Assembly: GCA_964399295.1 (NCBI GenBank)
Contig: CAYNQD010000001.1
Location: 203,944-267,943, forward strand
From: an uncultured Candidatus Saccharibacteria bacterium
GTDB taxonomy: Bacteria; Patescibacteriota; Minisyncoccia; Phycocordibacterales; UBA918
Length of the DNA stretch: 64,000 nucleotides
Direction of reading: 5' to 3'
Position 1 is the first letter of the stretch, and every line of letters starts with the position of its first letter. Shown one piece after another: positions 32,475 to 58,400 of this stretch. Under the pieces are notes generated by a model. The model searched no databases, was not told where the DNA came from, and saw only the letters and a list, made by a program, of their open reading frames with translations. A program made the position numbers and the translations under genes.

Positions 32475-32549
32475 GGCCCTATCGTCTAATGGTTAGGACA
32501 GCAGGTTTTCATCCTGCAAATCGGAGTTCGATTCTCCGTAGGGTCACCA
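32475..32549 (+). tRNA. tRNA-Glu (anticodon UUC), 75 nt including CCA
   Basis: Manual fold: 7-bp acceptor stem GGCCCTA/TAGGGTC, anticodon stem CAGG/CCTG with loop TTTTCAT, T-arm CGGAG-TTCGATT-CTCCG. Confidence 0.85.
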
Positions 32550-33976
32550 TAACGCAATTCTTCACTTTCAGCGATGGCTGCAAACGGTTTTTGCAAAGTA
32601 AAGACAAGGGTTTTTCCATCAATCTCCAGGTTCGAGGTAACTGATTTTAGCAAATCACGGTTTTCATTCTCATTAGCCTGTTTTTTGTTGATAGCTATAG
32701 CTTTTACCAGTTCGAGGAATTTTATTGTCTTGTAGTCGTTTTTGAACATTTCTGTTTGTACTTCTGCGAGGTCTTCCTCTCTGCTCAATCTTTCATGCAG
32801 TAATTTTTGGTGGCGGTTGTTAAACGTTTCTTTGTCAATCATGCGGTCGATAAAAGCATCGGTGAGACGAGTGATTCTTTCATCAACTTCAGCCAGTTTA
32901 AGTTTGGCGGACTGGATTAATTCAGCTTGGTGCTGGTAGCGTTCCGCTTGGAGGACGGTAAATTCAGCTTCCAGTTTGTTGATGGAAGTCACCGGCAAAC
33001 TAAGCTGATCAATCATAGCTTGCATCTGTTCATCAACTTTGTCTTCTCGGATACAAGCCCGAGGACAGTCTTTGGTATGACAACGGTAATAGACCTGCCC
33101 TTTCTGGTATTCAGCAATCAGGTTATAGTGGCAATGCAGACATTTGATAGATTTGCGGTAGCGGAACTGGTGTTTTAGACCGGTATTCTTGTTTCGACCG
33201 TGCAAAATATCTTGTACGCGGTCAAACTGGTATTTCTTGATCAATGGCTCATGAATACCCTGGTAGCGTTCACCAGTGGAGACGATATGAATAATACCGA
33301 TATAGAATTCATTGCCGAGCATGGTGGATAAACCGTTTCTGGATACTCGATTGCCCGAGCGGTTTCGCAGTCCCGCCTGATACATTTCCCTGCCTAAAGT
33401 ATAGAGACTGTGTTCACCGGTAGCGTAGAGCTTGAAGGCTTGTTGCACCAGTGGGGCCATTATCGGATCAGGTAGTTTTGGCAGTCCACGACCTTGGTCG
33501 AGGTAACCTAAAGGAGCGCGGAGTGGATAGAGTCCTTGCCGTAATCGGCCTCGAAATCCTTTTTTCACCTCATCCCGCAAGTTGCGGATAAAATCCGCCG
33601 CTACCACGGCCTGGATATCAGCGGCCAGTCGTCCACCGCGTGATTGCAGGTCTAGGCTTTCATGAGCAAAATGTACTTCAATACCTTTGTCGATTAGAGA
33701 ACCAAGATCAGCCCAGTCTTTTAGATTCCTGGCACTCCGGTCTATCTTGTGAATAATTACCCCGCCAGCTTGGCCTTTCACTAAAAGTCCAAGCATTTTG
33801 GTGAAAATAGTACGACCGCGTTTAGCCGCTGTTTCCTTTTCTTCAAACCACTGTTTGATGGTTAGGTTGTGACGACTGGCGTAGTTTTCGATAGCAAAAC
33901 GTTGTTCTGCTAAGGAAGAACCTTGGGTTCCTTGTTTGATGGTTGATACTCGGATATAGGCATAAACATATTTCAT
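32486..33976 (-). CDS. Large serine recombinase (integrase); its 3′ end overlaps the 3′ half of tRNA-Glu
   Basis: N-terminal resolvase catalytic domain YIRVSTIKQ…SLAEQ…HKIDRSARN, recombinase domain, zinc-ribbon Cys cluster, coiled coil. Confidence 0.8.
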   Translation of the reverse strand: MKYVYAYIRVSTIKQGTQGSSLAEQRFAIENYASRHNLTIKQWFEEKETAAKRGRTIFTKMLGLLVKGQAGGVIIHKIDRSARNLKDWADLGSLIDKGIEVHFAHESLDLQSRGGRLAADIQAVVAADFIRNLRDEVKKGFRGRLRQGLYPLRAPLGYLDQGRGLPKLPDPIMAPLVQQAFKLYATGEHSLYTLGREMYQAGLRNRSGNRVSRNGLSTMLGNEFYIGIIHIVSTGERYQGIHEPLIKKYQFDRVQDILHGRNKNTGLKHQFRYRKSIKCLHCHYNLIAEYQKGQVYYRCHTKDCPRACIREDKVDEQMQAMIDQLSLPVTSINKLEAEFTVLQAERYQHQAELIQSAKLKLAEVDERITRLTDAFIDRMIDKETFNNRHQKLLHERLSREEDLAEVQTEMFKNDYKTIKFLELVKAIAINKKQANENENRDLLKSVTSNLEIDGKTLVFTLQKPFAAIAESEELRYGDPTENRTPICRMKTCCPNH

Positions 33977-34197
33977 ACTGCATCAGGTTTAGATTCCTTA
34001 ACTTTATCATTATTATCGGGAAAGTCACGAATCTCATCTAACCTGCCTTCGGCTTCCAGACGCAAGAATATTCGATACAACACCGCTAAATAGGCGCGGA
34101 AATTGACGGTAGCTTCTTTTAATTCTTCATCGCTAGCGTCTGGCATAAAGTGCTGCACAATTTCAGCGATTTCCGGTGGTGGTGGGTATTTTTTCAT
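33973..34197 (-). CDS. Small acidic protein upstream of and overlapping the integrase (candidate recombination directionality factor / accessory protein)
   Basis: 74-aa ORF with a 4-bp ATGA overlap with the integrase start; no recognised family. Confidence 0.3.
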   Translation of the reverse strand: MKKYPPPPEIAEIVQHFMPDASDEELKEATVNFRAYLAVLYRIFLRLEAEGRLDEIRDFPDNNDKVKESKPDAV

Positions 34198-34304
34198 TCA
34201 TACAGTGTGACGGAAGCTGGTTTTCCAGACCAGGGACTAAAGCTTGTTGATACAGCAAACACTCTACCCTCCAGCAAATAAGGGCGGGTCGCTATGCTTT
34301 AGCT

Positions 34305-35609
34305 ATGCAAAAAAACCTGTCCAAAGCAAGAAAAGTAGTGTCTGAGTGTCTGACCAATGGCACCATGATTGAGATGGTTTATGATCGGGAAAACAAACGA
34401 ACCGGCCTGGCTTGTTTGGAAGTGGGAAATATTTCAATTAATCACTCGTACCAATCACCAGCAGGAGAAAAACTAGAGCCGATCCCCGCTACCAATAACC
34501 TCATCAAACACGGAGCGTTGTTATTGGCAGAAAAACCGGTTCCCTATGCATCAGTGTCAAAGCTGATAGCAGACATCCAAGCCTATATCTACCGCTACGT
34601 TGATATCTCTGATCATTTTCGTCAGATCGCCAGCTACTACATCCTCCTCACCTGGGTTTATGATGCTTTTAATGAAATTCCCTATCTGCGCCTACGGGGT
34701 GATTTTGGTTCTGGCAAAACCCGCGCCTTGTTGGTGATTGGATCACTGTGTCACAAAGCTTTTTTTGCCAGTGGTGCTTCCACCGTGTCGCCCATTTTTC
34801 ATACGCTGGATACTTTTCGGGGAACGTTGGTGTTTGATGAAGCGGATTTTCGCTTTAGTGATGAGAAAAATGAATTGGTGAAAATCTTTAATAACGGCAA
34901 CGTGCGCGGTTTTCCGATTCTCCGCACCGCTATCACCATTCAGCGTGAATTTGATCCTCGTGCCTTCCATGTCTATGGCCCCAAGATTGTGGCGATGCGG
35001 AAATCGTTTGCTGATCCTGCTCTGGAAAGTCGGTTTCTAACTGAAGAGATGGGCCAGAGCAGTCTTAGACGGGATATTCCCATAAACCTTCCTGATGTAC
35101 AGCAGGAAGAAGCGTTAGCGCTAAGAAACCAACTGCTGATGTATCGTTTTAAGATGTTACCTACCATCAAAGTCAACGACTCGTTACTTGATTCTTCCCT
35201 TTCACCACGACTGAACCAAATACTTATACCGCTACTTTCAATTATTGATGATGATAGGTTAAGAAATGGTATCCGCGAGGCAGTACGGTCGTTTGATCAA
35301 AAACTGTATGCTGAACGATCAGCGTCAATGGAGGCTGGGGTGTTGGAAATAATCCAGGAGTTATATCAGCATGGCGGTAGTGGGTCTATTCCAGTTTCGC
35401 AAATAGCTTCTATTTTTATTAGTCGATTTTCCACTGAGTATCAACGCCCAATCACAGCCAGAATAGTTGGCGGGGTACTGAGGAAACGCTTGCGTTTAGT
35501 GACATACAAAAGCCACGGGGTTTATGTGCTACCAGTGACGGAGAAACCAAAAGTAGCTGAGCTTTGTATTCGTTACGGGGTAACGGAACGAAATATTGAT
35601 GTGAATTGA
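34305..35609 (+). CDS. P-loop NTPase of the integrated element (primase-C / replication-mobilisation-like)
   Basis: Walker A GDFGSGKT and Walker B LVFDEADF; no housekeeping orthologue recognised. Confidence 0.4.
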   Translation: MQKNLSKARKVVSECLTNGTMIEMVYDRENKRTGLACLEVGNISINHSYQSPAGEKLEPIPATNNLIKHGALLLAEKPVPYASVSKLIADIQAYIYRYVDISDHFRQIASYYILLTWVYDAFNEIPYLRLRGDFGSGKTRALLVIGSLCHKAFFASGASTVSPIFHTLDTFRGTLVFDEADFRFSDEKNELVKIFNNGNVRGFPILRTAITIQREFDPRAFHVYGPKIVAMRKSFADPALESRFLTEEMGQSSLRRDIPINLPDVQQEEALALRNQLLMYRFKMLPTIKVNDSLLDSSLSPRLNQILIPLLSIIDDDRLRNGIREAVRSFDQKLYAERSASMEAGVLEIIQELYQHGGSGSIPVSQIASIFISRFSTEYQRPITARIVGGVLRKRLRLVTYKSHGVYVLPVTEKPKVAELCIRYGVTERNIDVN

Positions 35610-35614
35610 GTGGT

Positions 35615-35750
35615 GGGTAGACTTGGGGACGTGGGGACGAAAAATACGGGTATCAAGTAACTGGTACCCGTTATTTATATAGCTTTATTTATCAACGCCT
35701 TGGCTTAGCTTTGTGTCGCTCACTACGTCCCCACGTCCCCCAGTCTACCC
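35615..35750. repeat. MITE-like unit: 25-bp terminal inverted repeats (1 mismatch) flanking an 86-bp core with an internal hairpin
   Basis: gggtagacttggggacgtggggacg (35615–35639) versus cgtccccacgtcccccagtctaccc (35726–35750). Confidence 0.55.
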
Positions 35751-35784
35751 GAGTTATCCCCAGCGGTAATTTCTCCATACTACT

Positions 35785-37663
35785 TAGTGTCTGCCCGAAA
35801 ACTCACAATTCAAATAAATAACAATGGATTACGTTTAATTCCGGCAAAGAAGATTAGAAGGAATTTGAAATAAAACGACGTAGATAGGCGGTTTTGTCGT
35901 ATTTCAGGCCACAAAAACCCCAAACTTCGACAATAGTTTGAGAGAATATTCTTTATCACAAACCAACTTCGTTCGAATGGAATCCTCATGCGCGTAGTCC
36001 GAAAGACCCAAATGCAGTTAGGTGAAATTGACGTATCACAAATCAAATTTGATTTGCATTCCCGAGACGATATCCCCAAGGTGTTGCGCGGATTGCAGCA
36101 TCTATATCTGAACGAAACATTACGCGAACAGGTATTTGCGTTGCTGGGAAATGAAATTGCACCCACAGTGAACAAGCAAAATGGCCGTCCCGGCATGACA
36201 CTCTGGCGTATTCTGGTTTTTGGCGTATTGCGTCTGGACTTGAATATCGACTACGACCGTCTTCATGAGCTGAGCAACCAGCATCGAACCTTGCGGCAAA
36301 TGCTCGGCCATGGCTTGTACGATGAAGACAGGAAATATGCTTACCAGACCCTGGTGGATAACGTTGGACTGCTCACGCCGGAATTACTGGACAAACTGAA
36401 CCAGGTCATCGTAGCAGGAGGACATGCGCTGGTAAAAAAAAAGGACGGCGCAGCCCTGCGTGGGCGGTGCGACTCCTTTGTGGTTGAAACCGATGTTCAT
36501 TTTCCAACCGACATCAATTTGTTGTGGGACGCGATGCGCAAGGCGATTACGCTGACCGCGCAATGGAGTGAAAACCAACAACACAGCGATTGGCGCCAAT
36601 ATCGTTACAACCTGCGTCTATTGAAACGAAAGCTGCGTGAGGTGCAGCAAAGCAAGCGTCGCGCCAGCACGGATCAGAAGCCCATTCAGGTTATGCAGGC
36701 GCATCAGCGCTATCTTAATCAGGCGCAATATTACCTGAACAAAATTCAAACCACCTTGCCCGGATTGATTGCGATAACCGCGACCGAACGCCTGTTATGC
36801 ATTGAAATCGAAGGCTACATCCGTCATGCACAGCGTCAAATCAGCCAGATCGAACGCCGCGTAATGCAGAATGAGACCATCTTGCACGAAGAGAAAGTAT
36901 TTTCTGTTTTTGAGCCGCATACCGAATGGATCAGCAAAGGCAAAGCCGGTGTGCCGGTTGAGCTGGGTGTTAAAGTCTGTATTCTGGAAGATCAGCATCA
37001 ATTCATCCTGCATCATCACGTCATGACAAAACAAACCGATGATCGTATCGCGGTTGAAATGGTCACCGAGGCCAGGAAACGTTTTCCCGCCCTCAGTGCC
37101 TGTAGCTTCGATAAAGGCTTTCATTCGCCCGCCAACCAGACCGAACTGGCCCGGCAGCTCGACCAGGTCACGCTGCCTAAAAAGGGCAAGCTGTCCAAAG
37201 CGCGTCAAGCGGTAGAGCAGGCAGAAGAATTCACCAGAGCGCGTCATGCACACTCAGCGGTAGAATCGGCAATCCACGCGCTGGAAGTGCATGGTCTGGA
37301 TAAATGTCCCGATCATGGCATTAACGGTTTTAAACGGTACGTCGCACTGGCCGTTGTCGCCAGAAATATCCGTCGTATCGGAGATATTTTATGGCAGCGT
37401 GAAGAAGCACAAGAACGCAAGGCAAGCGCGCAACGAAATTCAAAGTATCGGCGAACTGCCTGAAACTTTTTCCAAACGAAAAACAGCGTCTGATTGTAAA
37501 CAATCAGCGGTGACTGCTGGGCAAAATTCGGGGTTTTCGTGCAAGATTTCCTGAAAATCACAAATGAACGTGTTTTTGGCGGAATCGTTCCGCTGAATTT
37601 TGTTCAAGGTGATTAAGAATTAGGCAGGCTGGTGGTGAAAATGGGGTTTTCGGGCAGACACTA
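35785..37663 (+). mobile_element. Insertion sequence (~1.88 kb), GC-rich (~50%) relative to the host, with 18-bp terminal IRs TAGTGTCTGCCCGAAAAC
   Basis: IR_L 35785–35802 and IR_R 37646–37663 are perfect reverse complements; a single transposase ORF lies inside. Confidence 0.7.
35988..37463 (+). CDS. DDE transposase of the IS (IS4/IS5-superfamily-like; exact family not assigned)
   Basis: 491-aa ORF filling the IS; DSFVVETDVHFPTD-type first Asp region; codon/GC bias foreign. Confidence 0.6.
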   Translation: MRVVRKTQMQLGEIDVSQIKFDLHSRDDIPKVLRGLQHLYLNETLREQVFALLGNEIAPTVNKQNGRPGMTLWRILVFGVLRLDLNIDYDRLHELSNQHRTLRQMLGHGLYDEDRKYAYQTLVDNVGLLTPELLDKLNQVIVAGGHALVKKKDGAALRGRCDSFVVETDVHFPTDINLLWDAMRKAITLTAQWSENQQHSDWRQYRYNLRLLKRKLREVQQSKRRASTDQKPIQVMQAHQRYLNQAQYYLNKIQTTLPGLIAITATERLLCIEIEGYIRHAQRQISQIERRVMQNETILHEEKVFSVFEPHTEWISKGKAGVPVELGVKVCILEDQHQFILHHHVMTKQTDDRIAVEMVTEARKRFPALSACSFDKGFHSPANQTELARQLDQVTLPKKGKLSKARQAVEQAEEFTRARHAHSAVESAIHALEVHGLDKCPDHGINGFKRYVALAVVARNIRRIGDILWQREEAQERKASAQRNSKYRRTA

Positions 37664-37731
37664 CTTAAACATGCTTTCGAGCGTGACAATAAAAATGCTT
37701 CTGAAGCTAACCCGCAGAAGCCATAAATTCT

Positions 37732-38106
37732 ATGAAAAAGAATAATAAAAATAAGTTTGCCCGGTGCTATTTACGCACATACCGGCGCAATTGGGGTTTA
37801 ACCCAAAAAGAATTGGCGACCTTGATTGGTACCGCCAGCAGTGTACAGATTAGTCGTTACGAAAACAGCAAACGCGCCCCCAAATTAGAAGTCGCGCTTG
37901 CCTGCCAAGTCATTTTCGGGGTTCCCCCGTCAACCATGTTTCCAAATGCCTACGCCTTGTCCGAGGAAGAAGTCATGAGGAATATGTGTCAAATGGACTT
38001 GGCGCTCCAAAACACTACCAATCTTTCAGGATTACGCAAGCGAGAACTGTTTAGTATCGCTCTCAGGCGTGTTTTAGACGAATCCCCTTTAGTTAAAAAG
38101 GTATGA
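37732..38106 (+). CDS. XRE-family helix-turn-helix regulator
   Basis: GLTQKELATLIGTASSVQISRYENSKRAP HTH_3-like block. Confidence 0.6.
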   Translation: MKKNNKNKFARCYLRTYRRNWGLTQKELATLIGTASSVQISRYENSKRAPKLEVALACQVIFGVPPSTMFPNAYALSEEEVMRNMCQMDLALQNTTNLSGLRKRELFSIALRRVLDESPLVKKV

Positions 38107-38627
38107 GTGTGGTTTTAAACAAAAGCCTAGTGTTGGCTATCTATCCTTTCAGTCGTGGATTTGCCTTTGTGCTATTTGAAGGCCCAGATAGTCCATTTGA
38201 CTGGGGCGTGAAGGAAATCAGGGATAAGCAACGAAACGTTAAAACCTTGGATGAGATAAAGGAGCTGATTGATCGTTATTGCCCGGAAGCCCTAGTGATG
38301 GAAGATATCAGCGACCGTGCTGGCCGACGATCAACCCGAATCAAGAAGCTTTATCAAATGATTGTTCATCTAGCCATCACTGAACACCTTGATCTGCATC
38401 GGATTTCCCATGCTGATACCAAACGGTATTTTGCCGTTATCGGTGCTGTTACCAAATACGAAATCGCTAAAGCCATTAGTCGACAAATACCGGCTTTTGG
38501 TCACCGGTTACCGAGAGTCCGTAAACCGTGGATGAGTGCTGATCCTAGGCAAAGTCTCTTTGATGCGGCGGCTTTGGGATTGGTCTTCTACGATAATCGC
38601 GGGGTACCCAGTCCTTTTGAAGCGTAA
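38103..38627 (+). CDS. Hypothetical protein, possibly an RNase H-like (RuvC/YqgF-like) fold
   Basis: LAIYPFSRGFAFVLFEG…LVMEDI resembles RuvC motif I/II spacing; 4-bp overlap with the upstream HTH gene. Confidence 0.3.
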   Translation: MSVVLNKSLVLAIYPFSRGFAFVLFEGPDSPFDWGVKEIRDKQRNVKTLDEIKELIDRYCPEALVMEDISDRAGRRSTRIKKLYQMIVHLAITEHLDLHRISHADTKRYFAVIGAVTKYEIAKAISRQIPAFGHRLPRVRKPWMSADPRQSLFDAAALGLVFYDNRGVPSPFEA

Positions 38628-38696
38628 TACAAAGCTTTTCCTTGTCATCGAGGAGTACCGAATTCCCGGTATTCCTCACGTGACAAGGAGGAAGTT

Positions 38697-39602
38697 ATGT
38701 TTCAAAGAAACGCGAGTACCAAAACCGATATCTACGCCAAGATAACCAATGAAATTATTCAGGCCATTGAAGCTGGTACCGGTGATTTTGCTATGCCCTG
38801 GCATAAACAAGCTTATGCTGGACTGCCACGGAATACTGTGACTAAACAGCCATACCGAGGTATTAATACGTTGTCTTTGTGGTTAGCTAGGCGGAGTGCG
38901 GGTTTTGCCAGTTCATACTGGGCATCATATTTGCAGTGGAAATCACTGAAAGCTCAGGTGCGGCAAGGTGAAAAGGGTTCAACTGTTGTGTTTTATAAGC
39001 AGCTGGAGAGCGAGGAGGAAAACGAAGACCGTGACGAAACTGAAAACCAAGCTCGAGCGGTGATCCGGTATTCCCACGTGTTCAACGGTGATCAGGTGGA
39101 TGGTTGGTCACAGACTGAAGCTCCAAGTCTGGCCAACCACACTAAATTTGCTAAAGCGGTGTGTTTTATCAATGCTCTTAAAAGCGATATCAAGCATGGT
39201 AGTGATACTGCTTATTATAGTCCAGCGCAGGATTGTATCTTTATGCCGAATCAGTCAATGTTTCAGGATACCAAAGCTGGTTCTGCCATTGAAGGCTACT
39301 ATGCGGTTTTGTTCCATGAGCATATTCATTGGTCTGGACACAAGACACGGTTAAACCGTGACATGTCTGGGAAATTTGGCTCTAGTTCTTACGCTATGGA
39401 AGAGTTGGTGGCAGAGCTTGGCGCATCGTTTCTGTGTGCTACGCTTGACATCAATACTTACCCGAGACCAGATCATGCTTCATACATTGCCAGCTGGCTT
39501 CAGGTACTGAAGGAACACAAAACGGCGATCTTTGCGGCGGCTGGTGCGGCTTCGAAAGCCAGTCTGTTCTTGGAAACATTAGTGGAGACTAATCGAAATT
39601 AA
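38697..39602 (+). CDS. ardC: ArdC-like antirestriction protein (ssDNA-binding N-domain plus zincin metalloprotease C-domain)
   Basis: ITNEIIQAIEAGTG…PWHK…KQPYRGINTLSLW…GEKGSTVVFY (DUF1738-like) and HEHIHWSGH. Confidence 0.75.
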   Translation: MFQRNASTKTDIYAKITNEIIQAIEAGTGDFAMPWHKQAYAGLPRNTVTKQPYRGINTLSLWLARRSAGFASSYWASYLQWKSLKAQVRQGEKGSTVVFYKQLESEEENEDRDETENQARAVIRYSHVFNGDQVDGWSQTEAPSLANHTKFAKAVCFINALKSDIKHGSDTAYYSPAQDCIFMPNQSMFQDTKAGSAIEGYYAVLFHEHIHWSGHKTRLNRDMSGKFGSSSYAMEELVAELGASFLCATLDINTYPRPDHASYIASWLQVLKEHKTAIFAAAGAASKASLFLETLVETNRN

Positions 39603-39651
39603 AGCAGTTCTTTTTAACCCGGCCTTGGTGGTCGGGTTTTTTATCTCTGAC
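39405..39651 (+). repeat. Direct repeat copy 1 (ardC 3′ end plus terminator), ~95% identical to 42874–43120
   Basis: Alignment by eye of ttggtggcagagcttggcgcatcgtttct…gtcgggttttt. Confidence 0.8.
39617..39645 (+). terminator. Rho-independent terminator of ardC
   Basis: aacccggccttggtggtcgggtttttt. Confidence 0.65.
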
Positions 39652-40188
39652 AGAAGTCACGGCCTAAGTTTTTAATCATACTGTCTGAAAATCTTACACC
39701 AAATAAAGGCGAGCTATCACGTTATATCCGGCTAACCATGTCAACTTAAAAAGAATTTCTAGGTAATTAAAAATTAGAATCATAAAAAACTGTCGGATTA
39801 TTTTACACGCCCCAGATTGCCTATTATTTTCTAGTTTTATCTCTTATCTTCAATAGATTATGTGCAATAACTACATTAATAGACTTAGATATTTGCCTAT
39901 AAATTGAGCAATTTTATGTTTTTAGGTGTCGAGATTCTTACACAAGCCATTTTAATAATAATTTTTAGTATTTGATTTAATTTTTTTATGCTTCCTAAAG
40001 CTAGTATTTGTGGGTTTTTGGTGAGATGTATTTAACACTCTCTTAAGAGTTGGTATAAAAATTGCTTGAAAATAATTGTATGTGGGTGGGGATTTATTCT
40101 GGCGCAGGTGTTCTTTGCAGAAAAATTGTTATGCAGGGTTACGTGATTTACACAAGCATTGGGTGTGGTATTGTATAAACAATAGGTT

Positions 40189-40806
40189 ATGAGAAAATCT
40201 CTAAAGATCATTTTGGTGGGTGTATTTGTATTAGTTACTATATTAATGATATCAGAAAACATTAACAGCAAGAATTCAACCCCTTTGAGCCTGAACCAGC
40301 AGAACATTTCCGATGATACTAACAAAAAGAATGAATTTCTTTTGTTACATAAAACACTTGATGAACTTTCGGAAACTTGGCCGGAAAGCAAAATACGACC
40401 ATATCGAAAGGCCGTTGAGAAATTTCCAAACGTAGACAGCTGTTTACTTGAAAGAGACGTGAATTCTGTTAACTGGTCAATAATCAAGACAACAACTGAA
40501 TTAGAAGTATGCTTATCTCGCATACATAATCATCTCGGGGATGTATCTAAATCTGAGGAATGGTTTAAGCAACAAGGTTTTAGTGTGAATGTTAGAAGTA
40601 ATCCCGATTACCCCGAGCGTCTTCATAGCGTAGGTGGTATCTGGTTAATTCCATCATCTGGTCCGCTAAAGAATCGAAAGTCACCCCTGTCCGGAATACA
40701 CGCACGATTTACGGAGTTATTTTTAAACTCAGGAATTAGTGTTGGAATATATATTAGTCAAGAAAACGTAGTTACTCATGTGACGGTCGAGTATTTAGTG
40801 AAGTAA
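40189..40806 (+). CDS. Secreted or membrane-anchored hypothetical protein (cassette gene 1)
   Basis: Signal-peptide-like MRKSLKIILVGVFVLVTILMI; AT-rich; no known domain. Confidence 0.5.
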   Translation: MRKSLKIILVGVFVLVTILMISENINSKNSTPLSLNQQNISDDTNKKNEFLLLHKTLDELSETWPESKIRPYRKAVEKFPNVDSCLLERDVNSVNWSIIKTTTELEVCLSRIHNHLGDVSKSEEWFKQQGFSVNVRSNPDYPERLHSVGGIWLIPSSGPLKNRKSPLSGIHARFTELFLNSGISVGIYISQENVVTHVTVEYLVK

Positions 40807-40830
40807 TCAAATAAATAAAGGGGAATTGAA

Positions 40831-41199
40831 ATGCCTGCTATAAGGATAGCTGCAAATTACATTGCTGGTTCATCTATTTTAACTGGTGATCTTGATCGCT
40901 CCGGTCATTTGCAAATTGTTTACGATGATGATGATCCGAATACACCTCTGATAGAAGCAGAGGTGCAAGCACCTATTGTGTTAGGCCCCCTCGTATTAGT
41001 GGGTGACTGGGTTTTCCCGAGGTTTGGTCAACTTCATGGTAAACCCACCGACTATATAGCTGACGATGACACGATAGAAAATACTGATCGCTATGCAATA
41101 ACCACCGTTAACTTACGGCCTTATCAAACAAATGTTGCCTATAAATTGAGCAAATGCGTGTCGATATTTCTTACAGCAGTCATACAAAAACCATTTTAA
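40831..41199 (+). CDS. Hypothetical protein (cassette gene 2)
   Basis: 122-aa ORF 24 bp downstream of gene 1. Confidence 0.4.
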   Translation: MPAIRIAANYIAGSSILTGDLDRSGHLQIVYDDDDPNTPLIEAEVQAPIVLGPLVLVGDWVFPRFGQLHGKPTDYIADDDTIENTDRYAITTVNLRPYQTNVAYKLSKCVSIFLTAVIQKPF

Positions 41200-41462
41200 T
41201 AACAACGAATTACTAGCTATCTTGTTTTTTATTACTGTGCAAGTAACTGTTTATAAGTGATGATGGGATATCCTAAATATTTTTTTGAACAATTGGCATG
41301 AAAATTGCATGGCAATTTGTATGTTGGTACAGGTTGGCTATGGGGCAAATTTTTTCTGTGATTTTTTGGTGTGAGTGCTCTTGCAAAAAAATGTTATTGA
41401 GAGTCACGTAGTTTACACTAACATAATACATGTTATTGTTTATTTACAATAATTAATAATTT

Positions 41463-42494
41463 ATGAAAAGATATTTGAAGATCATACTACTAATTATATT
41501 TGGATTAAGTGCTGTATTAATAATGATGCAAAGTGTGAAAAGTCAGGAATCATTCAAGAAGATTGAGGGCACCGAGATCTTCCGTCAGACGATTATTGGC
41601 TCAAATGCAGGCAGGGATCACGTTGCACACCTATATAATAACCGCCTTTTTATTCTACCCCTGGGAACACCGGTATATCCAGAAGTGATCACAGCGATCA
41701 AGCGTATTGGCAGTAGCTGGACGCGGGACGATATGAAGATTATGCTCCCAAAGAAGGCCAAATTTGTATGCGCTAAGGGAACATACGCTTTTTTCACACA
41801 ACAGGACAATGTTCTACAAATTGATTTAGACAGTGGCGGTGCATTGAATAATCTGGGCTCAGGACTTGCCATTTCGGCGGATTGTAACGCATTAGAAATC
41901 CCGCTACGGTTAGGGGTGCTTTGTGAGAAAGACTCGCCAGTTTTTCAAAAACTCCTCTCCAGCCGAGACGGTTGGCTAGTTGGCTGTCCTTTAGCCAACG
42001 GAGACGGCATCGCCATTCAGTCTATCCGTCCTGATGGTAAGACTGTTAGCTTCGGCACAGTCGCAAAAGGGCGTGGTAGTGCAAGACAGTGGACTGTGGA
42101 TTATTTACCTTGGTCTGATGCTTATCTTATACACGTGAGCTACCCAGGTGCAGAATTTTTCGGACTCATTGACTCTAAGGGCTGGCGCATGCCGTTCCAG
42201 ATGCTGCCAAAAGGCCCATGGTTTGAGACTAGTTTAGGGTTTGGTGCTGGACGCGCTTCTCTCAAGATTCTGCACCCTTCTGATCCACTCGTAATTCACG
42301 CTACCACAGGACAACTCTTTTTCGCACACAATGAAGCTGTTTCTTTACTCAAAACATCAGTACCTCAAGTGCGTATTTCACAAGATGGTTGTTATGCTTT
42401 GATTGTGACTGACATTCGCAGCAAAACCCTTAATTCCGACGGACTCCCTTTTGCAACTCAAACTGTTAACGAGGTTCCTCTTTGTGTATTTTAA
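41463..42494 (+). CDS. Secreted hypothetical protein (cassette gene 3), with a signal peptide paralogous to gene 1
   Basis: MKRYLKIILLIIFGLSAVLIMM closely matches MRKSLKIILVGVFVLVTILMI; the mature domains are unrelated. Confidence 0.5.
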   Translation: MKRYLKIILLIIFGLSAVLIMMQSVKSQESFKKIEGTEIFRQTIIGSNAGRDHVAHLYNNRLFILPLGTPVYPEVITAIKRIGSSWTRDDMKIMLPKKAKFVCAKGTYAFFTQQDNVLQIDLDSGGALNNLGSGLAISADCNALEIPLRLGVLCEKDSPVFQKLLSSRDGWLVGCPLANGDGIAIQSIRPDGKTVSFGTVAKGRGSARQWTVDYLPWSDAYLIHVSYPGAEFFGLIDSKGWRMPFQMLPKGPWFETSLGFGAGRASLKILHPSDPLVIHATTGQLFFAHNEAVSLLKTSVPQVRISQDGCYALIVTDIRSKTLNSDGLPFATQTVNEVPLCVF

Positions 42495-42660
42495 AGTTTG
42501 ACGGTGCTTGTAACAAAGCCATGTACTGACTGCCACCTTATAAGTTTATTATCAATTGATTTTAAAGGAGTTTTATTGAGTTTTTATACATTTAATAATT
42601 ATCTAAGATTGTGCATCTTAACTAAGAATAATCAAATTTTAACTGTAAATAGGAGGTATT

Positions 42661-43071
42661 ATGTCACTTACGGGACTCGCCTTTAATAATAGTTTTGCTG
42701 GAACAAAATTCTTCCACCCAGGTTTAAGTAGTGTTGGAGTGTTGGAAGCCATCAATCTATCCGGTGCTGCCTATGAAACAACAGAGGGCGGTCTTTCAAC
42801 TTTTGACCTTGGTGCATGGAAACCAATCACGGCCAGTTTAACAGCGGTTGAATATGGGTTAGATTCGACGTTATTGGTGGCAGAGCTTGGCGCATCGTTT
42901 CTATGTGCTACGCTTGACATCAATACTTACCCGAGACCAGATCATGCTTCATACATTGCCAGCTGGCTTCAGGTACTGAAGGAACACAAAACGGCGATCT
43001 TTGCGGCGGCTGGTGCAGCTTCCAAAGCCAGCCTGTTCTTGGAGGCATTAGTGGAGACTAATAGAAGTTAA
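42661..43071 (+). pseudogene. Chimeric ORF: a novel 70-aa N-terminus fused to a duplicated ArdC C-terminal 65 aa
   Basis: C-terminus LVAELGASFLCATLDINTYPRPDHASYIASWLQVLKEHKTAIFAAAGAASKASLFLE is nearly identical to the ArdC end. Confidence 0.6.
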
Positions 43072-43120
43072 AGTAGTTCTTTTTTTAACCCGACCTTGGT
43101 GGTCGGGTTTTTCTTTGTAT
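42874..43120 (+). repeat. Direct repeat copy 2 (ardC 3′ end plus terminator)
   Basis: See copy 1. Confidence 0.8.
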
Positions 43121-43256
43121 GATAGATAAAACATATTTTAAATCCAATGTATTACTGATGGTTTGGGTTGTTTTGTTAGTTTTGTATGTGTTGGGAAAAT
43201 TTACATGTACAAAATAACTCTTAGATTTTATTTTACTTTTTTATTATCACTCAACT

Positions 43257-43958
43257 TTAGACATCCAGCCCCCAGCCTTGCGTCACCCGAACGATGGCAC
43301 AACTGGGAGTGAAACGAACGAAATTCATGCCGTTTGCTGCTGATAGTGCTGCTACATCCGTAATCTTGGGTCCCCGCGCTGTTTGGGGAAGGTGAATATT
43401 GAGGACTTCCGGTTGAAACTGTCTCTGAAAGAAAGTCCGGTAAATTCCATTCGTAGCCACTGCGCCACCAGACCGCCGGTCAGTGGTTCTTTGCCGCGCC
43501 ATGGCGCCACGGCATCGATAGAGAAAGATTCTTCCGCAACCAGACTCAATAACTGAACCAGTGTCCACGCCGCCGAGCGAATCTGCATCCATATAACTCC
43601 AGCACAGTGCGTTTCTGCTGCCACAAGTTGTTCACACCCCACCAGCGCCGCTTCAGGTTGTAAAACAAGGGCTCGATGCCCCATCGTCGTGCGTATAGGA
43701 AAAGTATTTCTTCTGCATTTAATTCCGTTTCGGTTGCCAATAGCAGGCGCGCCTTTGACCAACGCTGTTTGTCCGCATCTTAGAATTCGCACCATAATCG
43801 CGCGCACCGGTGTCCCTTTGAGAAAGCGTGCCATTGCAACCGTCGTGCACAGGCAAAGTCGGACAGTTTGAGCGTAGGACATAGAGCACCAAATGAGGAA
43901 TAAAAATTCCTTCATTGGCCGCGCAAACCTTGCCTTCTGTCAAGTGATTTTTGCTCAT
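43257..43958 (-). pseudogene. Degraded IS4/IS701-like DDE transposase (frameshifted fragments), GC-rich
   Basis: Three overlapping minus-strand ORF pieces; ILFLYARRWGIEPLFYNLKR matches the C-terminal YxxRWxIE transposase motif. Confidence 0.55.
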
Positions 43959-44388
43959 TTTCTGAATGTTTTTTCGCCTCGTATCGCTACTTTGCTTTTG
44001 CCTTAATGGTCGATTCTTTGATGCTGAATGTCTAAACTTGAGTTATTATCAATTTTGTGAACCAACTTCACAGAAATAAAGTATGTAATTTGGGTGGTAA
44101 ATTGCACAATTATTGTGCGGGAAAGTGTCGATCTTTTTTACACCTACTCATTTTAAAGCGTTGTTTTTGTAGTGTGCTGAATTTAGAAAGCTGGGAAATT
44201 AGCTGTATTATTTGCTTTATTGGAAGAAGCTAAATTATTTATAGTATTGGCGTGGATTTTGCTTTGTCTTTGTCTATTGTACATAGGTGCAGGTTGATAG
44301 CGGTCTAATTTTAGGCTATGTCTGCATTAAACGTTGAAACCACTTTTTTGTCCAATAGACTGGAACATTAAGACTGGAGAGCATAGTC

Positions 44389-45360
44389 ATGAAAGTCTCT
44401 GATTTTCTGGAGTGGTTTGAAAAAATATCGCACCTTAGTCGTGGTCAAAAAGAACAGGTCAGGCATTGCTTAAGCGAGGTGAAGCCGCAAGCTGCGGTCG
44501 TGAAATATCTTGAGGATTCTTTTGAAGCGAATTGTCCGGTCTGCCAGGCAGATCGCTTTTATCGTTGGGGACACCAAGCGGGGTTGCAACGTTTTCGCTG
44601 TTGCGCATGCAAGCACACATTCACGGCTATTTCGGGAACCCCTTTGGCTCGTCTGCGGCATAAGGAACAGTGGTTGAATTACAGCGCGGCGTTGATTGAA
44701 GGCTTGACCGTGCGAGCGAGCGCCAAGCAATGCGGAATAGACAAAAATACCAGTTCTCGCTGGCGCCATCGGTTCCTGACTTTGCCGGCGGCGACTAAAG
44801 CCAACCACTTGCATGGGATCATCGAGGCGGATAAGACCTTTTTTCCTTCTTCCTGCAAAGGCCAACGCCATCTGAATCGTCCACCGCGTAAACGCGGCAA
44901 GCAAATCCATGCACGTGGCACAGGCAAAGACCAGGTGCCGGTGTTGGTAGTACGCGACCGCTCTGGTGCAACAGCGGATTTCATATTGAATGCGCTTGAT
45001 AAAAAGACAATTGAGCCTCCTTTGCGGGCTATTCTGGCGAAGGATGCCATTTTCTGTAGTGATGGCGCTGCCGTCTACCGGTCTGTGGCTCATAGCCTCG
45101 GAATTACCCATCGCCCCGTCAATCTCTCTGCTGGGATTCGAGTCATTGCTGGCGTTTACCATATCCAGAATGTTAATGCCTACGACAGCCGACTTAAACA
45201 ATGGATGAAAAGATTTCATGGGGTCGCGACCAAATACTTGGCAAATTATCTGGGCTGGCGTAGATGGTTGGAACGTTGGGGCGAGCACAACTCGCCAATC
45301 GTTGCGCTCCAGGTCGCTCTCGGGAGAGAAAATCAGTTTCAACTATTAACGCAGATATAG
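44389..45360 (+). CDS. IS1595-family transposase (N-terminal zinc-ribbon plus DDE_Tnp_IS1595)
   Basis: CPVCQ…C.C zinc ribbon, ~320-aa length, DDE-domain layout; GC ~52%. Confidence 0.7.
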   Translation: MKVSDFLEWFEKISHLSRGQKEQVRHCLSEVKPQAAVVKYLEDSFEANCPVCQADRFYRWGHQAGLQRFRCCACKHTFTAISGTPLARLRHKEQWLNYSAALIEGLTVRASAKQCGIDKNTSSRWRHRFLTLPAATKANHLHGIIEADKTFFPSSCKGQRHLNRPPRKRGKQIHARGTGKDQVPVLVVRDRSGATADFILNALDKKTIEPPLRAILAKDAIFCSDGAAVYRSVAHSLGITHRPVNLSAGIRVIAGVYHIQNVNAYDSRLKQWMKRFHGVATKYLANYLGWRRWLERWGEHNSPIVALQVALGRENQFQLLTQI

Positions 45361-45480
45361 CCACAGTCTTGTCTTCGCAAACATTGATGTGGCGAATTGT
45401 TATAAAGAGGTGTTCGATTTACATTGCTTGAGTATTTGTTATTGTCAAATATAAAGAGTGATGTTAGGCTAACATGCTAT

Positions 45481-45897
45481 ATGCTATTAAAAAATTTATC
45501 AATTAAAAAGAAATTATTACTAGTAGCCACCATCACTTTATTAGCCCTTTCAGCTTTAGTTGCTAATGTTTTAATACCGTACAATATCAGTGAATGTGAA
45601 CTGGCGCAGTTGGTGTTTATCCAGTACGCAGGAAATAACGATGGTCACGAAAGTGTTGAAGATCTAATCGACGATGGAATCATCTACTATGGTACTAGGG
45701 GTCCTCACGGAATCTTTGACTTTAGTAAGACTTACAGACTAGGTATCGTAGAGCGTTGGAGAGGTAAGGCAAAGGGGAAATACCTTGAATATGACCTCAC
45801 TAGAACAGGTAACATGACTGGTTTTAGAAAAATGACAGTATCCCTTGAAGAAATAGAACACGGAAAAAGAGAGCTAAAAAAAATTGTTTGCCCCTAG
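45481..45897 (+). CDS. Small TM-anchored protein co-transcribed with the giant RTX gene. The ORF track starts at TTG 45424
   Basis: MLLKNLSIKKKLLLVATITLLALSALVANVL N-terminal helix; stop is 9 nt before the SD of the next gene. Confidence 0.45.
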   Translation: MLLKNLSIKKKLLLVATITLLALSALVANVLIPYNISECELAQLVFIQYAGNNDGHESVEDLIDDGIIYYGTRGPHGIFDFSKTYRLGIVERWRGKAKGKYLEYDLTRTGNMTGFRKMTVSLEEIEHGKRELKKIVCP

Positions 45898-45906
45898 GAG
45901 GAATAG

Positions 45907-48900
45907 ATGGTTACTAGAATCACTTCAGGTAGTTTAAATGTTTCTGAATTTACTCCAGAAACAATCGTTAGTTTATATTTGTATGGCACGAAGACACCCC
46001 CGCAAAATCTATATGACCGAATAAAACCAGAGAGTTTCTTAAGCAACTTAACTACTCTTAAAGACGAACAAGGTAATTTTGTTGCCAATGTTGTAAATAT
46101 GGCCGTTGACGGACAAGCGTATTTGGACAACGGAGCGGGACGGTTTGCTACACCTGCCGAGTTTGAATTAGTCAAAATATTCTTTGAGGGGTTTAATAAC
46201 TTCTTTTTTAACTTAGATCCTGGCTCGTATACCTATGACCAACTAAACGACAAGGTAACATTTTTTACTCAACTCACTGGTGGTCATGATAATCGTCTCG
46301 TCATTGAGCAGTTAGGTAGAAATGACGGCAAAGATAATGGTGTAGATAGGCCTTTTATTTTTAATAATACAAGTTTTACTCTCCAAACAAATCAAAATGC
46401 AGCTCAGGAATTAAGATTTGTTGTTACCCCAGCAGGCGAAAGATATATAGAAAACGTTGCTATTCGCACTTTTGATGATAATTTTGATTTTGTAGGGGGA
46501 AGTTTTGCTTCAGTTATATTTAACGCGGCAGAAGCAGGAAAATATGATCCTTACAGAATTGGACATCGGGTAGAATTTGATTACAACAACAATAATTTAA
46601 CAGTTGACCCTAAATACACACTTAACGATTATAACCAGCATCTTCAATTTATCGCGGATACTTCGAAGCAAGTGGCAACTAATAGTGATAGTGATAAACT
46701 TAGAGAAAGGCTTGAAGCAAAAGAAATTTTGTTATACGAAAAATCAGGGTATAGCATTGTTTATGGTACGTATGAATCTCAACAACTACATGCTGTTACA
46801 GAATTACTCTCACTATTTAGTAAACCAAGTCTTATCCTTGCCGGAGAAGGTGCTGATAAAGTTACCGGAGGATCGAAGAGTGATCGTCTTTATGGACATG
46901 AAGGTAACGATGATCTTTTTGGTCTTGATGAAGCTGACTATCTTTTTGGTGGTTCAGGTGACGATGAACTTGATGGCGGTCCAGGCAATGATTATCTTTT
47001 TGGTGACGTTTCGTCAGAAAATTTTCTAGGTGCAGAAGAAGTTAAATTTACTTCCGGTAACGACACTCTTGATGGTGGCGCTGGCAATGATATTCTTGAT
47101 GGCGGTCCAGGCAATGATACTTACAAATTCACCAATGGATTATTCGGCGGATCATACGGTAATGACACCATCATAGGTGGCTCTGGAAATGTTGATCGTA
47201 ATGACGTAATTGAAATAAACGGTACAATTTTCTCTGGCAATCCCACTAAAACTCAAAATAACAATGAATACAGCCTAAATAGCAAGACTATTCAGGTGCT
47301 TAGTGGAGATGTTACAACTGAGGCCACCATTAAAATTATTGATGGTTCCAATTCTATTGAAGTTCGAGGCTTTACTACTGGTGATTATGGTATTAATTTC
47401 CTAGATACAACAACTTTACGTCCAGAACGTGATTTCTACACTGGAACAACGAGTAACGGTCTTCTGTTTCTCAATTGGTTTCGTGAGGGGGATCTTTCAT
47501 ACTCGATTGATGTTTTAAACGATGGGACGGTGTTGCGACCTGCCGGTGCTGGCTTCCAAGATGCCGTTCTGACGATTCCTGCAAACTTGAATTTTGTTCA
47601 ATCAGGTGGTGTTGATTTAAGAGGGCTTCGGGGTTCACAGGAAGACGTCCTTGTTGAGGTTAAGTATTCAGTCAGTCCAGCGAATAGTCCTATCGTCGAC
47701 CTGGTAACCTTTACAACGGACACTGTCAGATACTTATTTATCGGAGACGGTGTCGATAATCGCGGCGGGCAAGCTTTTGGTGATCCACACTTAATCACAT
47801 TCGATAACGTTAGCTATGACTTTCAAGCAGCTGGTGATTTTATCCTTACTCGTGCCACAAGCGGGCCTGATTATGAAGTACAAGCCCGGTTTTCAGCTTT
47901 TTCATCAGCAGTATCGGTAACTACCGCTATGGCCACCAAGGTCGATGGAATAGCTGTATCGATACAAATCGATGGTGATACAGGTGATTTGTTGATTGAT
48001 GGCAGTAGTGTGAATATCGCTAATGGTGGTTCAGTAGCTGTTGGTGGAGGCTCCATTAGTCGAAACGGTAGAAAAATTGAAATTGATCATGGTAATGGCG
48101 ATAAAACCTCAGTGGATGTTTTTAGCAGTTTCATGAATGTCACTCCGTCACCTTCTCTTGCGAGAATTCCAGGCTCGTTGGAAGGACTGCTTGGCGATGC
48201 TGACGGCAATCCTGGTGATGATTTTCAATTAGCAGATGGCACTGTACTTCCCACACCGTTACCAATCAATACTCTCTATGGTAGTTATGCTGCTAGTTGG
48301 CTGGTAGCCGATAGCGAATCTATCCTTCCTGGTGCTCGTGAGTTGTTTGATGCACCTGATAGAATCATCACTATAGATAGCTTGCCACAATCTTTGCGAC
48401 AAGCCGCTGAGGCCGCTGTTGCCGCAGCTGGAATTACTAATCCGATTTTGCGTGAGGCTGCAATTTTAGACTTTGCCTTAACTGGGAATATAGAATTTAT
48501 TGAAGCAGCCAAGCTTACAAACGACATTTTTGATCCGATTATCGATACAGTAGCTGTTGATCCGATCAATAATCCGGTAGTGATTCTAACGACTAACCAG
48601 ATTGAACTTGATGAAGCAAACCCTGCCCACCAGACCGCTACACTCACCGTCTCACGTGGTTCAACTACAGGTGATTTAACAATTAACTATAATGTCATTG
48701 GAGTCGGTGCTTATCCTGCCAATACAGATGATTTTTCAGGAAATACTTCCGGTACAGTGGTCATTAATGATGGTGAGGACACTGCAACATTTACCGTTGG
48801 AATAGTTGATGATCTATTAGATGAAGAATCAGAACAATTTGATGTAGCTATTGCGTTAGATGGTACTCAAGCTTCTGCCTATGAGTTATTAGTATCTTCT

Positions 48901-49296
48901 GTGCGTATGACTATTTTGGATGATGACGATGGGCCGGTCTTAAACGAAGTAATTGGAACAACCTCCAGTGATTATCTTGTTGGTACAGGTAATGCAGATA
49001 TTATTCACAGTCTGGGTGGTAGTTATGACAGATCATTTGGTGGACTCGGGGCCGATATTTTTGCCTTTGGCTCTGAAGCCTTGAATGGTATTCGCGAACG
49101 CGATGTCATTATGGACTATGAAGTTGGTGTTGATGCTATTTTGCTTGAAGACGGTGCTTCAGTTGGTTCTATTCGTCAGACCTCAACCGGTGCAGTGATT
49201 TTCCTCGAAGGTGATCTTGATGCGATTTATGTACAAGGCGAAGGTGTTCTGCCTGGTAATCTCACATTCTTGCCTGAAAGTCTGTTATTAGCCTGA
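45907..49296 (+). CDS. Giant (1129-aa) RTX-type calcium-binding repeat protein with VWD and Calx-beta-like domains (putative T1SS-secreted adhesin)
   Basis: Strong SD aggagg; nonapeptide repeats GGSGDDELDGGPGNDYLFG and GGAGNDILDGGPGNDTY; GDPHLITFDNVSYDFQAAGDF VWD hallmark; DDFSGNTSGTVVINDGEDTATFTVGIVDD Calx-beta-like; no N-terminal signal peptide. Confidence 0.7.
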   Translation: MVTRITSGSLNVSEFTPETIVSLYLYGTKTPPQNLYDRIKPESFLSNLTTLKDEQGNFVANVVNMAVDGQAYLDNGAGRFATPAEFELVKIFFEGFNNFFFNLDPGSYTYDQLNDKVTFFTQLTGGHDNRLVIEQLGRNDGKDNGVDRPFIFNNTSFTLQTNQNAAQELRFVVTPAGERYIENVAIRTFDDNFDFVGGSFASVIFNAAEAGKYDPYRIGHRVEFDYNNNNLTVDPKYTLNDYNQHLQFIADTSKQVATNSDSDKLRERLEAKEILLYEKSGYSIVYGTYESQQLHAVTELLSLFSKPSLILAGEGADKVTGGSKSDRLYGHEGNDDLFGLDEADYLFGGSGDDELDGGPGNDYLFGDVSSENFLGAEEVKFTSGNDTLDGGAGNDILDGGPGNDTYKFTNGLFGGSYGNDTIIGGSGNVDRNDVIEINGTIFSGNPTKTQNNNEYSLNSKTIQVLSGDVTTEATIKIIDGSNSIEVRGFTTGDYGINFLDTTTLRPERDFYTGTTSNGLLFLNWFREGDLSYSIDVLNDGTVLRPAGAGFQDAVLTIPANLNFVQSGGVDLRGLRGSQEDVLVEVKYSVSPANSPIVDLVTFTTDTVRYLFIGDGVDNRGGQAFGDPHLITFDNVSYDFQAAGDFILTRATSGPDYEVQARFSAFSSAVSVTTAMATKVDGIAVSIQIDGDTGDLLIDGSSVNIANGGSVAVGGGSISRNGRKIEIDHGNGDKTSVDVFSSFMNVTPSPSLARIPGSLEGLLGDADGNPGDDFQLADGTVLPTPLPINTLYGSYAASWLVADSESILPGARELFDAPDRIITIDSLPQSLRQAAEAAVAAAGITNPILREAAILDFALTGNIEFIEAAKLTNDIFDPIIDTVAVDPINNPVVILTTNQIELDEANPAHQTATLTVSRGSTTGDLTINYNVIGVGAYPANTDDFSGNTSGTVVINDGEDTATFTVGIVDDLLDEESEQFDVAIALDGTQASAYELLVSSVRMTILDDDDGPVLNEVIGTTSSDYLVGTGNADIIHSLGGSYDRSFGGLGADIFAFGSEALNGIRERDVIMDYEVGVDAILLEDGASVGSIRQTSTGAVIFLEGDLDAIYVQGEGVLPGNLTFLPESLLLA

Positions 49297-49374
49297 TTTT
49301 AATTAACTACCCAATATATCTGATACAACCTATTTTTTGCCGTGGCAAAATTAACGCTATAAGGAATTCCAATA

Positions 49375-49971: not shown

Positions 49972-50099
49972 TATTTGAGACAATCATTAATCAAATCAAA
50001 CAACCAAGGGAATTGGTTGTTTGATTATGACTGCTGGTAGTGTTTCCATTTAACCAAAACTACCATCCAATTTGCTTATTAGAGTACTAAAACCCTACT

Positions 50100-58330: not shown

Positions 58331-58400
58331 CGCTACCTCCTTGAATGTATGAGATAAGTAGCTAAAGTATATATATTTTATGGTAAGTCGGGAAGAAAAT

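Follow-up and report, generated by a model that had tools for sequence, protein, structure and literature searches.

A Nitrosomonas-type ISNCY insertion sequence in a mobile island of a Patescibacteria genome, probably acquired by recent inter-phylum transfer

The DNA analysed here is a stretch of 64,000 nt from contig CAYNQD010000001.1 of an uncultured Candidatus Saccharibacteria bacterium. The whole stretch is referred to as the window, and all positions are numbered within it. At 35.8-37.7 kb the window contains an insertion sequence (IS) of the ISNCY family with its own transposase gene. By comparison with alleles in which the same site is empty, the inserted DNA was delimited to 35787-37661, i.e., 1,875 bp. 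The element and its borders are composed of the following features:

35787..37661, plus strand: insertion sequence of the ISNCY family, ISNco1-like, 1,875 bp, occurring once in the window
35988..37463, plus strand: intact DDE transposase gene encoding 491 amino acids (aa), the sole long open reading frame (ORF) between the repeats
35787..35802, plus strand: left terminal inverted repeat GTGTCTGCCCGAAAAC, 16 bp, perfect complement of 37646-37661
37646..37661, plus strand: right terminal inverted repeat GTTTTCGGGCAGACAC, 16 bp
35781..35786, strand not applicable: left copy of the target-site duplication TACTTA, present as a single TACTTA in the empty sites
37662..37667, strand not applicable: right copy of the target-site duplication TACTTA

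A perfect inverted pair of 18 nt is present at the borders of the element (35785-35802 and 37646-37663), and a preliminary description of this DNA, made from its letters alone, had taken it as the inverted repeats of the IS. The pair is exact, but the part belonging to the IS comprises 16 bp, because the outer TA on each side is part of the TACTTA duplication, which itself represents a TANNTA target. Two other delimitations were considered and rejected. An inverted repeat of 18 bp without any duplication would leave ACT and CTT as non-matching flanks, and both the empty site and the pattern of the family favour 16 bp together with a 6-bp duplication. As the bases AC in front of the left TACTTA also match, this copy taken by itself would formally permit a duplication of up to 8 bp; an 8-bp duplication (ACTACTTA) would make both ends asymmetric and conflicts with the family pattern of 6 bp at TANNTA. 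No further copy of the terminal 16-mer was detected within the window, even with three mismatches permitted. The insertion point is located in a spacer of 241 bp between a gene encoding a 434-aa protein and the gene of an Xre-type regulator. A promoter scan around the insertion returned no sigma-70-like sites and only terminator-like hairpins of a generic kind. Just 3' of the 434-aa gene and 36 bp left of the insertion point, a 25-nt inverted repeat was observed (GGGTAGACTTGGGGACGTGGGGACG and its complement, 96%), the arms of which are separated by an 86-nt spacer containing a terminator-like hairpin (35615-35750); a recombination site and a large terminator structure are both possibilities for this repeat.

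The neighbouring genes were looked up in the public per-run Logan assemblies and both states of the site were returned. The filled state is represented on the left side by the contigs L002-L004 (SRR16797988, SRR16797977 and SRR16797999), which match the window at 100% identity over a stretch that begins at 32693, crosses the left junction and ends inside the IS, L002 being seen in four samples. The right junction is crossed at 100% identity by the contigs L007 and L008. Of these contigs, L002 reaches 692 bp and L007 1,213 bp into the IS. The empty state was found in four contigs, L005 (SRR26421930), L006 (SRR26421928), L009 (SRR26421929) and L010 (SRR28981371), in all of which the 434-aa gene is directly adjacent to the Xre gene and TACTTA occurs once. 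These four contigs align to the window up to 35786 and again from 37660, with one shared ACTACTTA stretch, and they are 92-95% identical to the window in the left flank and 95-98.7% in the right flank. The empty sites read ...CCATACTACTTAAACATG..., where the window reads ...CCATACTACTTA[GTGTC...GACAC]TACTTAAACATG....

These alleles bear on the question raised in the preliminary description, whether the element at 35.8-37.7 kb is a sign of an assembly chimera, in which IS reads from Nitrosomonas would have been wrongly threaded into the contig of a bacterium of the Candidate Phyla Radiation (CPR). The foreign composition of the IS would fit such a chimera, as would related IS variants that apparently occur in the same samples, judging from Logan contigs that break inside the IS. 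Against this, the duplication comprises exactly those six bases that are present as a single copy in the four empty-site alleles and it obeys the TANNTA target rule of the family, and separate per-run assemblies cross both junctions at 100% identity. A precise insertion with a 6-bp duplication that is absent from the empty alleles cannot be produced by mis-assembly; therefore, the chimera, which we consider extremely improbable, is rejected for 35787-37661, and the ISNCY insertion is real and precise. As a separate observation, the Logan contigs of the window strain do not terminate at the ends of the IS and instead break inside it, at 36068 (L004), 36173 (L003), 36449-36478 (L002/L007) and 37579 (L008). 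These breaks would imply that the same samples also contain other variants of the IS, which would fit a co-occurrence with a donor-type population.

The 491-aa transposase matches the NCBIfam model NF033593 (ISNCY family transposase) with 537.4 bits at a cutoff of 325, residues 21-465 of the protein being aligned to model positions 1-443 of 444; no Pfam match was obtained for it. In an alignment of 68 homologues, the columns containing D162 (...CDSFVVETD...), D375 (...SFDKGF...) and E426 (...SAVESAIHALE...) are conserved to at least 97%. Their motif context (DSF..., FDKG..., ..VES..) suggests that these residues form the catalytic triad, and the conservation of the acidic columns is consistent with an intact DDE enzyme. 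A scan of the GTDB with the transposase returned 327 relatives, the best 80 loci of which were kept for analysis. Among these 80 loci, homologous termini with the consensus GTGCCTGACCGAAAAC ... GTTTTCGGTCAGGCAC could be located for more than 40 elements, which have lengths of 1.65-2.1 kb. Perfect 6-bp target-site duplications are present in 20 of the 37 relatives with both flanks, 18 of these 20 having the form TANNTA, and in total 66 of 81 single flanks fit TANNTA; the window copy conforms to this pattern. For this poorly described subgroup of the ISNCY family the target rule is thereby pinned to a 6-bp duplication at TANNTA. An above-cutoff full-length model match, conserved inverted repeats, the characteristic length of the duplication, intact acidic residues and an insertion polymorphism were all found, and the element at 35787-37661 is a bona fide NF033593-type member of the ISNCY family and as such an ordinary DDE insertion sequence. 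From its sequence it appears to be structurally complete and it is probably active. Within the transposase gene a homopolymer of nine adenines (36435-36443) encodes KKK, and relatives at 86% identity, which are 489 aa long, have KK at this position; the tract is potentially slippage-prone.

Amongst named elements, ISNco1 from Nitrosomonas communis resembles the window element in having a single transposase of ~490 aa with a full-length match to NF033593, the proteins being 76% identical. HQU62920.1 from Nitrosomonas sp. belongs to a cluster that is 86% identical in protein to the window transposase. With the ISNco1-type relatives the window element shares the terminal repeats GTG(C/T)CTG..CGAAAAC, the size range of 1.65-2.1 kb and the 6-bp TANNTA duplication. 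It differs from the closest GTDB copies in showing only ~74% DNA identity, and from the ISNco1 group in its host, which is a Patescibacteria genome and not a proteobacterium. Following usual ISfinder practice, an element at this level of DNA identity would receive an IS name of its own. The element may fall into the ISDol1 subgroup of the ISfinder scheme (1.6-1.9 kb, 6-7-bp duplication), with which its length and its duplication agree. The literature confirms that an ISDol1 subgroup of ISNCY exists and nothing beyond this (PMC8147514). A distant similarity of the transposase to the IS5 family was also detected, and the relatives of the element are labelled as 'IS5 family' by JGI. Shared features are the DDE enzyme, with its residues arranged as D..D(K)G..E, and a target that is AT-rich, palindromic in part and duplicated over a short length. 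However, the match to the IS5 family model NF033578 (93 bits, E = 1.9e-26) is far under the model cutoff of 275, and the transposase of ~490 aa and the 6-bp TANNTA duplication also set the element apart from the IS5 family.

Five full-length copies of the element were found elsewhere (L001 and L093-L096), being 98.9-99.4% identical to the window copy over exactly 1,875 bp. The six copies together contain 32 variable sites and differ pairwise by 1-21 nt; the window copy differs from the other five by 11-21 nt and has six private changes. The copy in L093 shows a perfect target-site duplication TACATA and is flanked by genes of cyclic di-GMP signalling. Nitrosomonas sp. proteins match the response-regulator/EAL gene in this flank at 93% and 89% identity; the named matches of this gene are overwhelmingly from Nitrosomonas, the rest being from proteobacterial metagenome-assembled genomes (MAGs). 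The best GTDB matches of the IS (75-77%) are from Nitrosomonas nitrosa, two Nitrosomonas sp. MAGs, an uncultured beta proteobacterium and one contig of a Legionellaceae MAG, and the other GTDB relatives are mostly from Beta- and Gammaproteobacteria. No Patescibacteria are present among the best 80 of the 327 GTDB relatives, and no match to the IS was obtained in the phage collection. The transposase protein is identical to P0253 of the clustered protein collection, which is on record on an NCBI contig of 594,086 bp; exact-protein look-ups returned no record for the ISNCY transposase (with two alternative starts), for the cysteinyl-tRNA synthetase CysS, for the IS1595 transposase and for the 496-aa recombinase encoded in the window.

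In its composition the IS stands out from the surrounding DNA. The GC content amounts to 48.3% in the ISNCY element and 50.7% in its ORF, compared with 42.0% in the whole window, and the second and third foreign IS of the window, described below, reach 52.0% (core of an IS701 relic, 43257-43915) and 51.1% (ORF of an IS1595 element). Only 1.4% of all segments of 1,879 bp attain the GC content of the IS, and all of the richest ones are located at 35-37 kb or 43 kb. The contrast described earlier for these elements, ~50-55% against ~40%, is thus real, but it is smaller than had been given. The codon usage, which had been called proteobacterial-like, indeed points in this direction: GC at third codon positions (GC3) is 0.55 for the ISNCY and 0.53 for the IS1595 transposase against 0.40-0.48 for the core genes of the host. 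Genes of Nitrosomonas that flank the sister copy have GC3 values of 0.50-0.52. The tetranucleotide composition of the IS, likewise closer to Nitrosomonas, correlates at 0.74-0.84 with the Nitrosomonas flanks, at 0.56 with the host core and at 0.48 with the mobile island into which the IS is inserted. Judged by these values, the composition of the IS agrees with an origin from Nitrosomonas.

The IS differs by ~1% or less from its Nitrosomonas-borne sisters and the host flanks differ from the empty-site alleles by 5-8% on the left and by 1.3-5% on the right; therefore, the insertion is younger than the split of the island variants. We regard it as very probable that this CPR bacterium recently acquired an IS of the Nitrosomonas type, which then transposed within it, and we infer that the transfer was directed from a Nitrosomonas-like donor to the CPR bacterium. 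The element would not be native to the lineage. It forms part of a population of copies that share ~99% identity, and a Nitrosomonas chromosome holds at least one of them. For the recent inter-phylum transfer into the CPR bacterium both an uptake of DNA from neighbouring or host cells and a mobile vector are plausible. By analogy with DDE transposases, the single transposase would bind the 16-bp terminal inverted repeats and insert the element at a TANNTA hexamer, and repair of the staggered cut would duplicate six target bases. After its entry the element would have transposed into the 241-bp spacer within the mobile island.

A different history was considered, in which the IS has long been resident in the patescibacterial lineage, perhaps in several copies, and the Nitrosomonas copies are the recipients, or in which both obtained it from a shared third source. 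Some observations are in favour of this: the single-copy status of the IS applies to the 64-kb window only, three IS elements are already present in the island, and the assignment of one sister copy only to an organism would also leave room for a third-party donor. We nevertheless judge such a history to be unlikely, as all named deeper relatives (86%, 77% and 76% protein identity) are from Nitrosomonas or other Proteobacteria, Patescibacteria are missing from the best 80 of the 327 GTDB loci, GC3 and the tetranucleotide signature match Nitrosomonas and not the host, and the site is empty in the related island variants.

The organism carrying the insertion can be assigned from the core genes of the window. 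Its CysS is 79% identical to a protein of Candidatus Nomurabacteria, the other named matches being from Paceibacterota/Pacebacteria, and P0121, the longest contig of which likewise measures 594,086 bp, is listed at 100% identity to it; DnaB, GltX, FtsW and ribosomal proteins are also encoded. Based on CysS, the host belongs to the Patescibacteria/CPR (Paceibacteria/Nomurabacteria-like), in line with the small-genome lineage suspected before. The IS is not located in the core itself and lies within a mobile island, for which the following features were annotated:

32475..59594: mobile island, approximate limits, host-like with ~43% GC, holding all three IS elements (Pfam, tRNA, composition)
32475-32549: tRNA-Glu(UUC) (Rfam, 63 bits)
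32486-33976, minus strand: large serine recombinase, 496 aa (Pfam)
37732-38106: Xre regulator (Pfam)
38697-39602: ArdC (Pfam)
42874-43120: duplicated 3' end of ardC
45907-49296: RTX/VWD/Calx-beta protein, 1,129 aa (Pfam)
52095-54146: second serine recombinase (Pfam)
55229-59594: two ATPases of the type IV secretion system (T4SS) type (Pfam)

The tRNA-Glu was the only hit of an Rfam scan of the whole window. The GC content of the island amounts to 42.9% and most of its genes have GC3 values of 0.42-0.44; its tetranucleotide composition correlates at 0.66-0.76 with the host core and at ~0.5 with Nitrosomonas. Genomic islands and horizontal gene transfer are reported to be common in Patescibacteria (PMC12455944), as chromosomal T4SS components are reported to be widespread in this group (PMC12102498).

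Several points weigh against a recent transfer from Nitrosomonas into this genome. The empty-site alleles are diverged variants of the island and not the same strain, so that the insertion is dated only relative to the split of these variants. Among the near-identical copies, L093 is the only one that is assigned to an organism, and the exact transposase is on record on one contig only, where several copies would count once. No vector was found, the plasmid collection containing one weak partial match (a Methylotuvimicrobium plasmid, with 28% of the query covered at 66% identity). The 6-bp flanks do not match in two of the sister copies, L001 (TAAATA/TATTTA) and L094 (TAAATA/TAAGTA), each single flank fitting TANNTA. 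These flanks are found at 1-17 and 1893-1898 of L001 and at 2503-2508 and 4384-4389 of L094, and recombination between copies, point mutation or assembly across different copies are possible causes of the mismatch. Finally, no retrieved contig bridges 32445-32692, where the tRNA-Glu and the recombinase are joined, so that the deposited assembly and the composition are what connects the island to the CPR core.

From the last point another explanation arises, namely that the island (32.4-59.6 kb) stems from another organism or from an extrachromosomal element and owes its position to a mis-join at the tRNA-Glu, in which case the IS would not be part of the CPR genome. The contigs stop at 32444 and restart at 32693, and the exact look-up of the recombinase was without a record. 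Of the five contigs recorded for the protein encoded at 28230-28679 three were inspected, the other two being 20-200 kb long. Moreover, the module from recombinase to ArdC recurs in L005 in a different left-hand context. This context has a GC content of only 37%, i.e., it is even more AT-rich, and it is unlike Nitrosomonas with tetranucleotide correlations of 0.32-0.34. A mis-join is further opposed by the composition of the island, the GC content and most GC3 values of which equal those of the core, and parts of which correlate at 0.66-0.79 with the core or with the rest of the island against ~0.5 with Nitrosomonas. In a de Bruijn graph, tRNA genes and island borders are places where contig breaks are expected, and T4SS-type ATPases on chromosomes are reported to be common in Patescibacteria (PMC12102498). 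A mis-joined island is therefore regarded as highly unlikely, and a location of the Nitrosomonas-type IS in the genome of the CPR bacterium is preferred.

Two further IS elements with a foreign composition are located in the island at 43.2-45.4 kb:

43240..44052, minus strand: IS701-family relic of 813 bp, bounded by imperfect 30-nt inverted repeats
44314..45362, plus strand: IS1595-family insertion sequence, 1,049 bp, 40-nt inverted repeats at 78%
44389-45360: intact IS1595 transposase gene, 323 aa (NF033547, 180.6 bits at a cutoff of 75)

The first of these had been described as a degraded IS4/IS701-like fragment, which is supported by a partial match to the IS701 model and by frameshifts. 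The ORF at 43352-43915 (minus strand) matches the model NF049999 at positions 346-410 of 412 only, with 55.9 bits at a cutoff of 170, and a full-length transposase above the cutoff is not present. The relic retains the frameshifted C-terminal third of the transposase, with the motif LYARRWGIEPLFYNLKR followed by frameshifts. With the IS701 family it shares this motif of the C-terminal catalytic region (YxxRWxIExxFxxLK) and terminal inverted repeats, which are 83% complementary (43240-43269 and 44023-44052). It differs from the members of the family in that about two-thirds of the transposase are deleted and the rest is frameshifted, the model match remaining below the cutoff, and the relic is non-autonomous. 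The limits given for the relic are those of this repeat pair, the flanks being AT-rich.

The assignment of the second element to IS1595 is confirmed by the match to NF033547, and its transposase furthermore contains the N-terminal Zn-binding domain (NF050000, 42.5 bits at a cutoff of 28) and matches PF12762 of Pfam with 51.1 bits (cutoff 27). The ends of the element are colinear with those of the metagenomic relatives L097-L106. L097 is the closest relative with 90% protein and 91% DNA identity; its longer flank (2.6 kb) has a GC content of 58% and its short left flank of 44%. The nearest plasmid-borne relatives are proteobacterial and at most ~51% identical in protein. ISAchd1 and other proteobacterial IS1595 members share with the element the NF033547 match, the zinc-binding domain, a length of ~1.05 kb and GGCTATGTCTGC termini; the window copy differs from them in the absence of a duplication and in a protein identity of at most 51% to the plasmid copies. 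Searching for duplicated targets had different outcomes for the elements of the window, with the 6-bp TACTTA found for the ISNCY element and none for the IS1595 element, the 8-bp flanks of which (44306-44313 and 45363-45370) read TAATTTTA and ACAGTCTT. As 8-bp duplications are present in its relatives L098 and L106, their absence from the window copy points to a rearrangement since insertion, either a deletion or recombination affecting one flank or an IS-mediated event, and not to an element outside the family.

The combined segment of IS701 relic and IS1595 element has a non-host tetranucleotide signature. Both are compositionally foreign but not demonstrably recent, so that the recent acquisition proposed in the preliminary description for all three elements stands for the ISNCY element only, with its 98.9-99.4% identical copies, the empty sites and the absence of Patescibacteria from its best 80 relatives. 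The relic and the IS1595 element would represent older arrivals in the same island, likewise of non-host composition, and it may be in this island that a genome which is otherwise streamlined tolerates foreign IS elements.

The element itself is ordinary and it is its setting that is noteworthy, i.e., an apparently very recent transfer from the Nitrosomonas gene pool to Patescibacteria and an island with three foreign IS. The genomes of Patescibacteria are very small and streamlined, and for most of these bacteria no host is known. The locus suggests that CPR genomes still receive and tolerate foreign transposable elements, here gathered in one mobile island, and that compositional oddities in CPR MAGs need not be errors of binning or assembly. 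Horizontal gene transfer into Patescibacteria was already reported in general terms (PMC12455944); a literature search on IS elements in CPR bacteria returned nothing specific, and no paper was found for the run and sample accessions. Partners in a physical interaction might be recognised by the young mobile elements that they share. For the case described here, the shared ~99% identical IS could be the trace of a physical association, in which the CPR bacterium lives on Nitrosomonas, or takes up DNA from it, in nitrifying communities; we hold this to be a rather doubtful proposal, for which the contig breaks inside the IS, pointing to other IS variants in the same samples, give a weak hint. 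If it were true, freshly shared IS elements would constitute a general culture-independent way to nominate hosts of uncultured Patescibacteria.

Some additional observations were made on the island and its surroundings. The tRNA-Glu(UUC) gene overlaps the 3' end of the ORF of the large serine recombinase on the opposite strand (32475-32700). The same recombinase in L005 (6576-6770) and L006 (40-234) has a length of 516 aa against 496 aa in the window, and the homology of both contigs to the window begins exactly at the 3' end of the tRNA (...GGTCACCA|TAACGC). This suggests that the crossover site of the island is located inside the 3' coding region of the recombinase itself, in which case integration would alter the C-terminus of the enzyme.

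The 3' end of ardC and the sequence downstream of it (39400-39642) are duplicated ~3.2 kb further on (42874-43120), immediately before the IS701 relic, and the ORF at 42661-43071 retains only the C-terminal part of an MPTase-PolyVal domain. Compared to L005, the window contains ~10 kb of different DNA between ardC and a gene encoding a 246-aa protein (50100-50840), and this region is a rearrangement hotspot.

The RTX/VWD/Calx-beta protein, with calcium-binding repeats and a von Willebrand D domain, is encoded right after the IS1595 element and is a candidate for a secreted or adhesion protein of the CPR bacterium; in L005 a different HemolysinCabind protein is encoded beside the recombinase module. 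At 59600-64000 the GC content falls sharply to 33.9%. This part encodes a DegT/DnrJ/EryC1 aminotransferase (60791-62077) and a GFO/IDH/MocA oxidoreductase (62074-63156), both of which are sugar-modification genes, and probably represents a surface-glycan gene cluster in its own right, with another origin.

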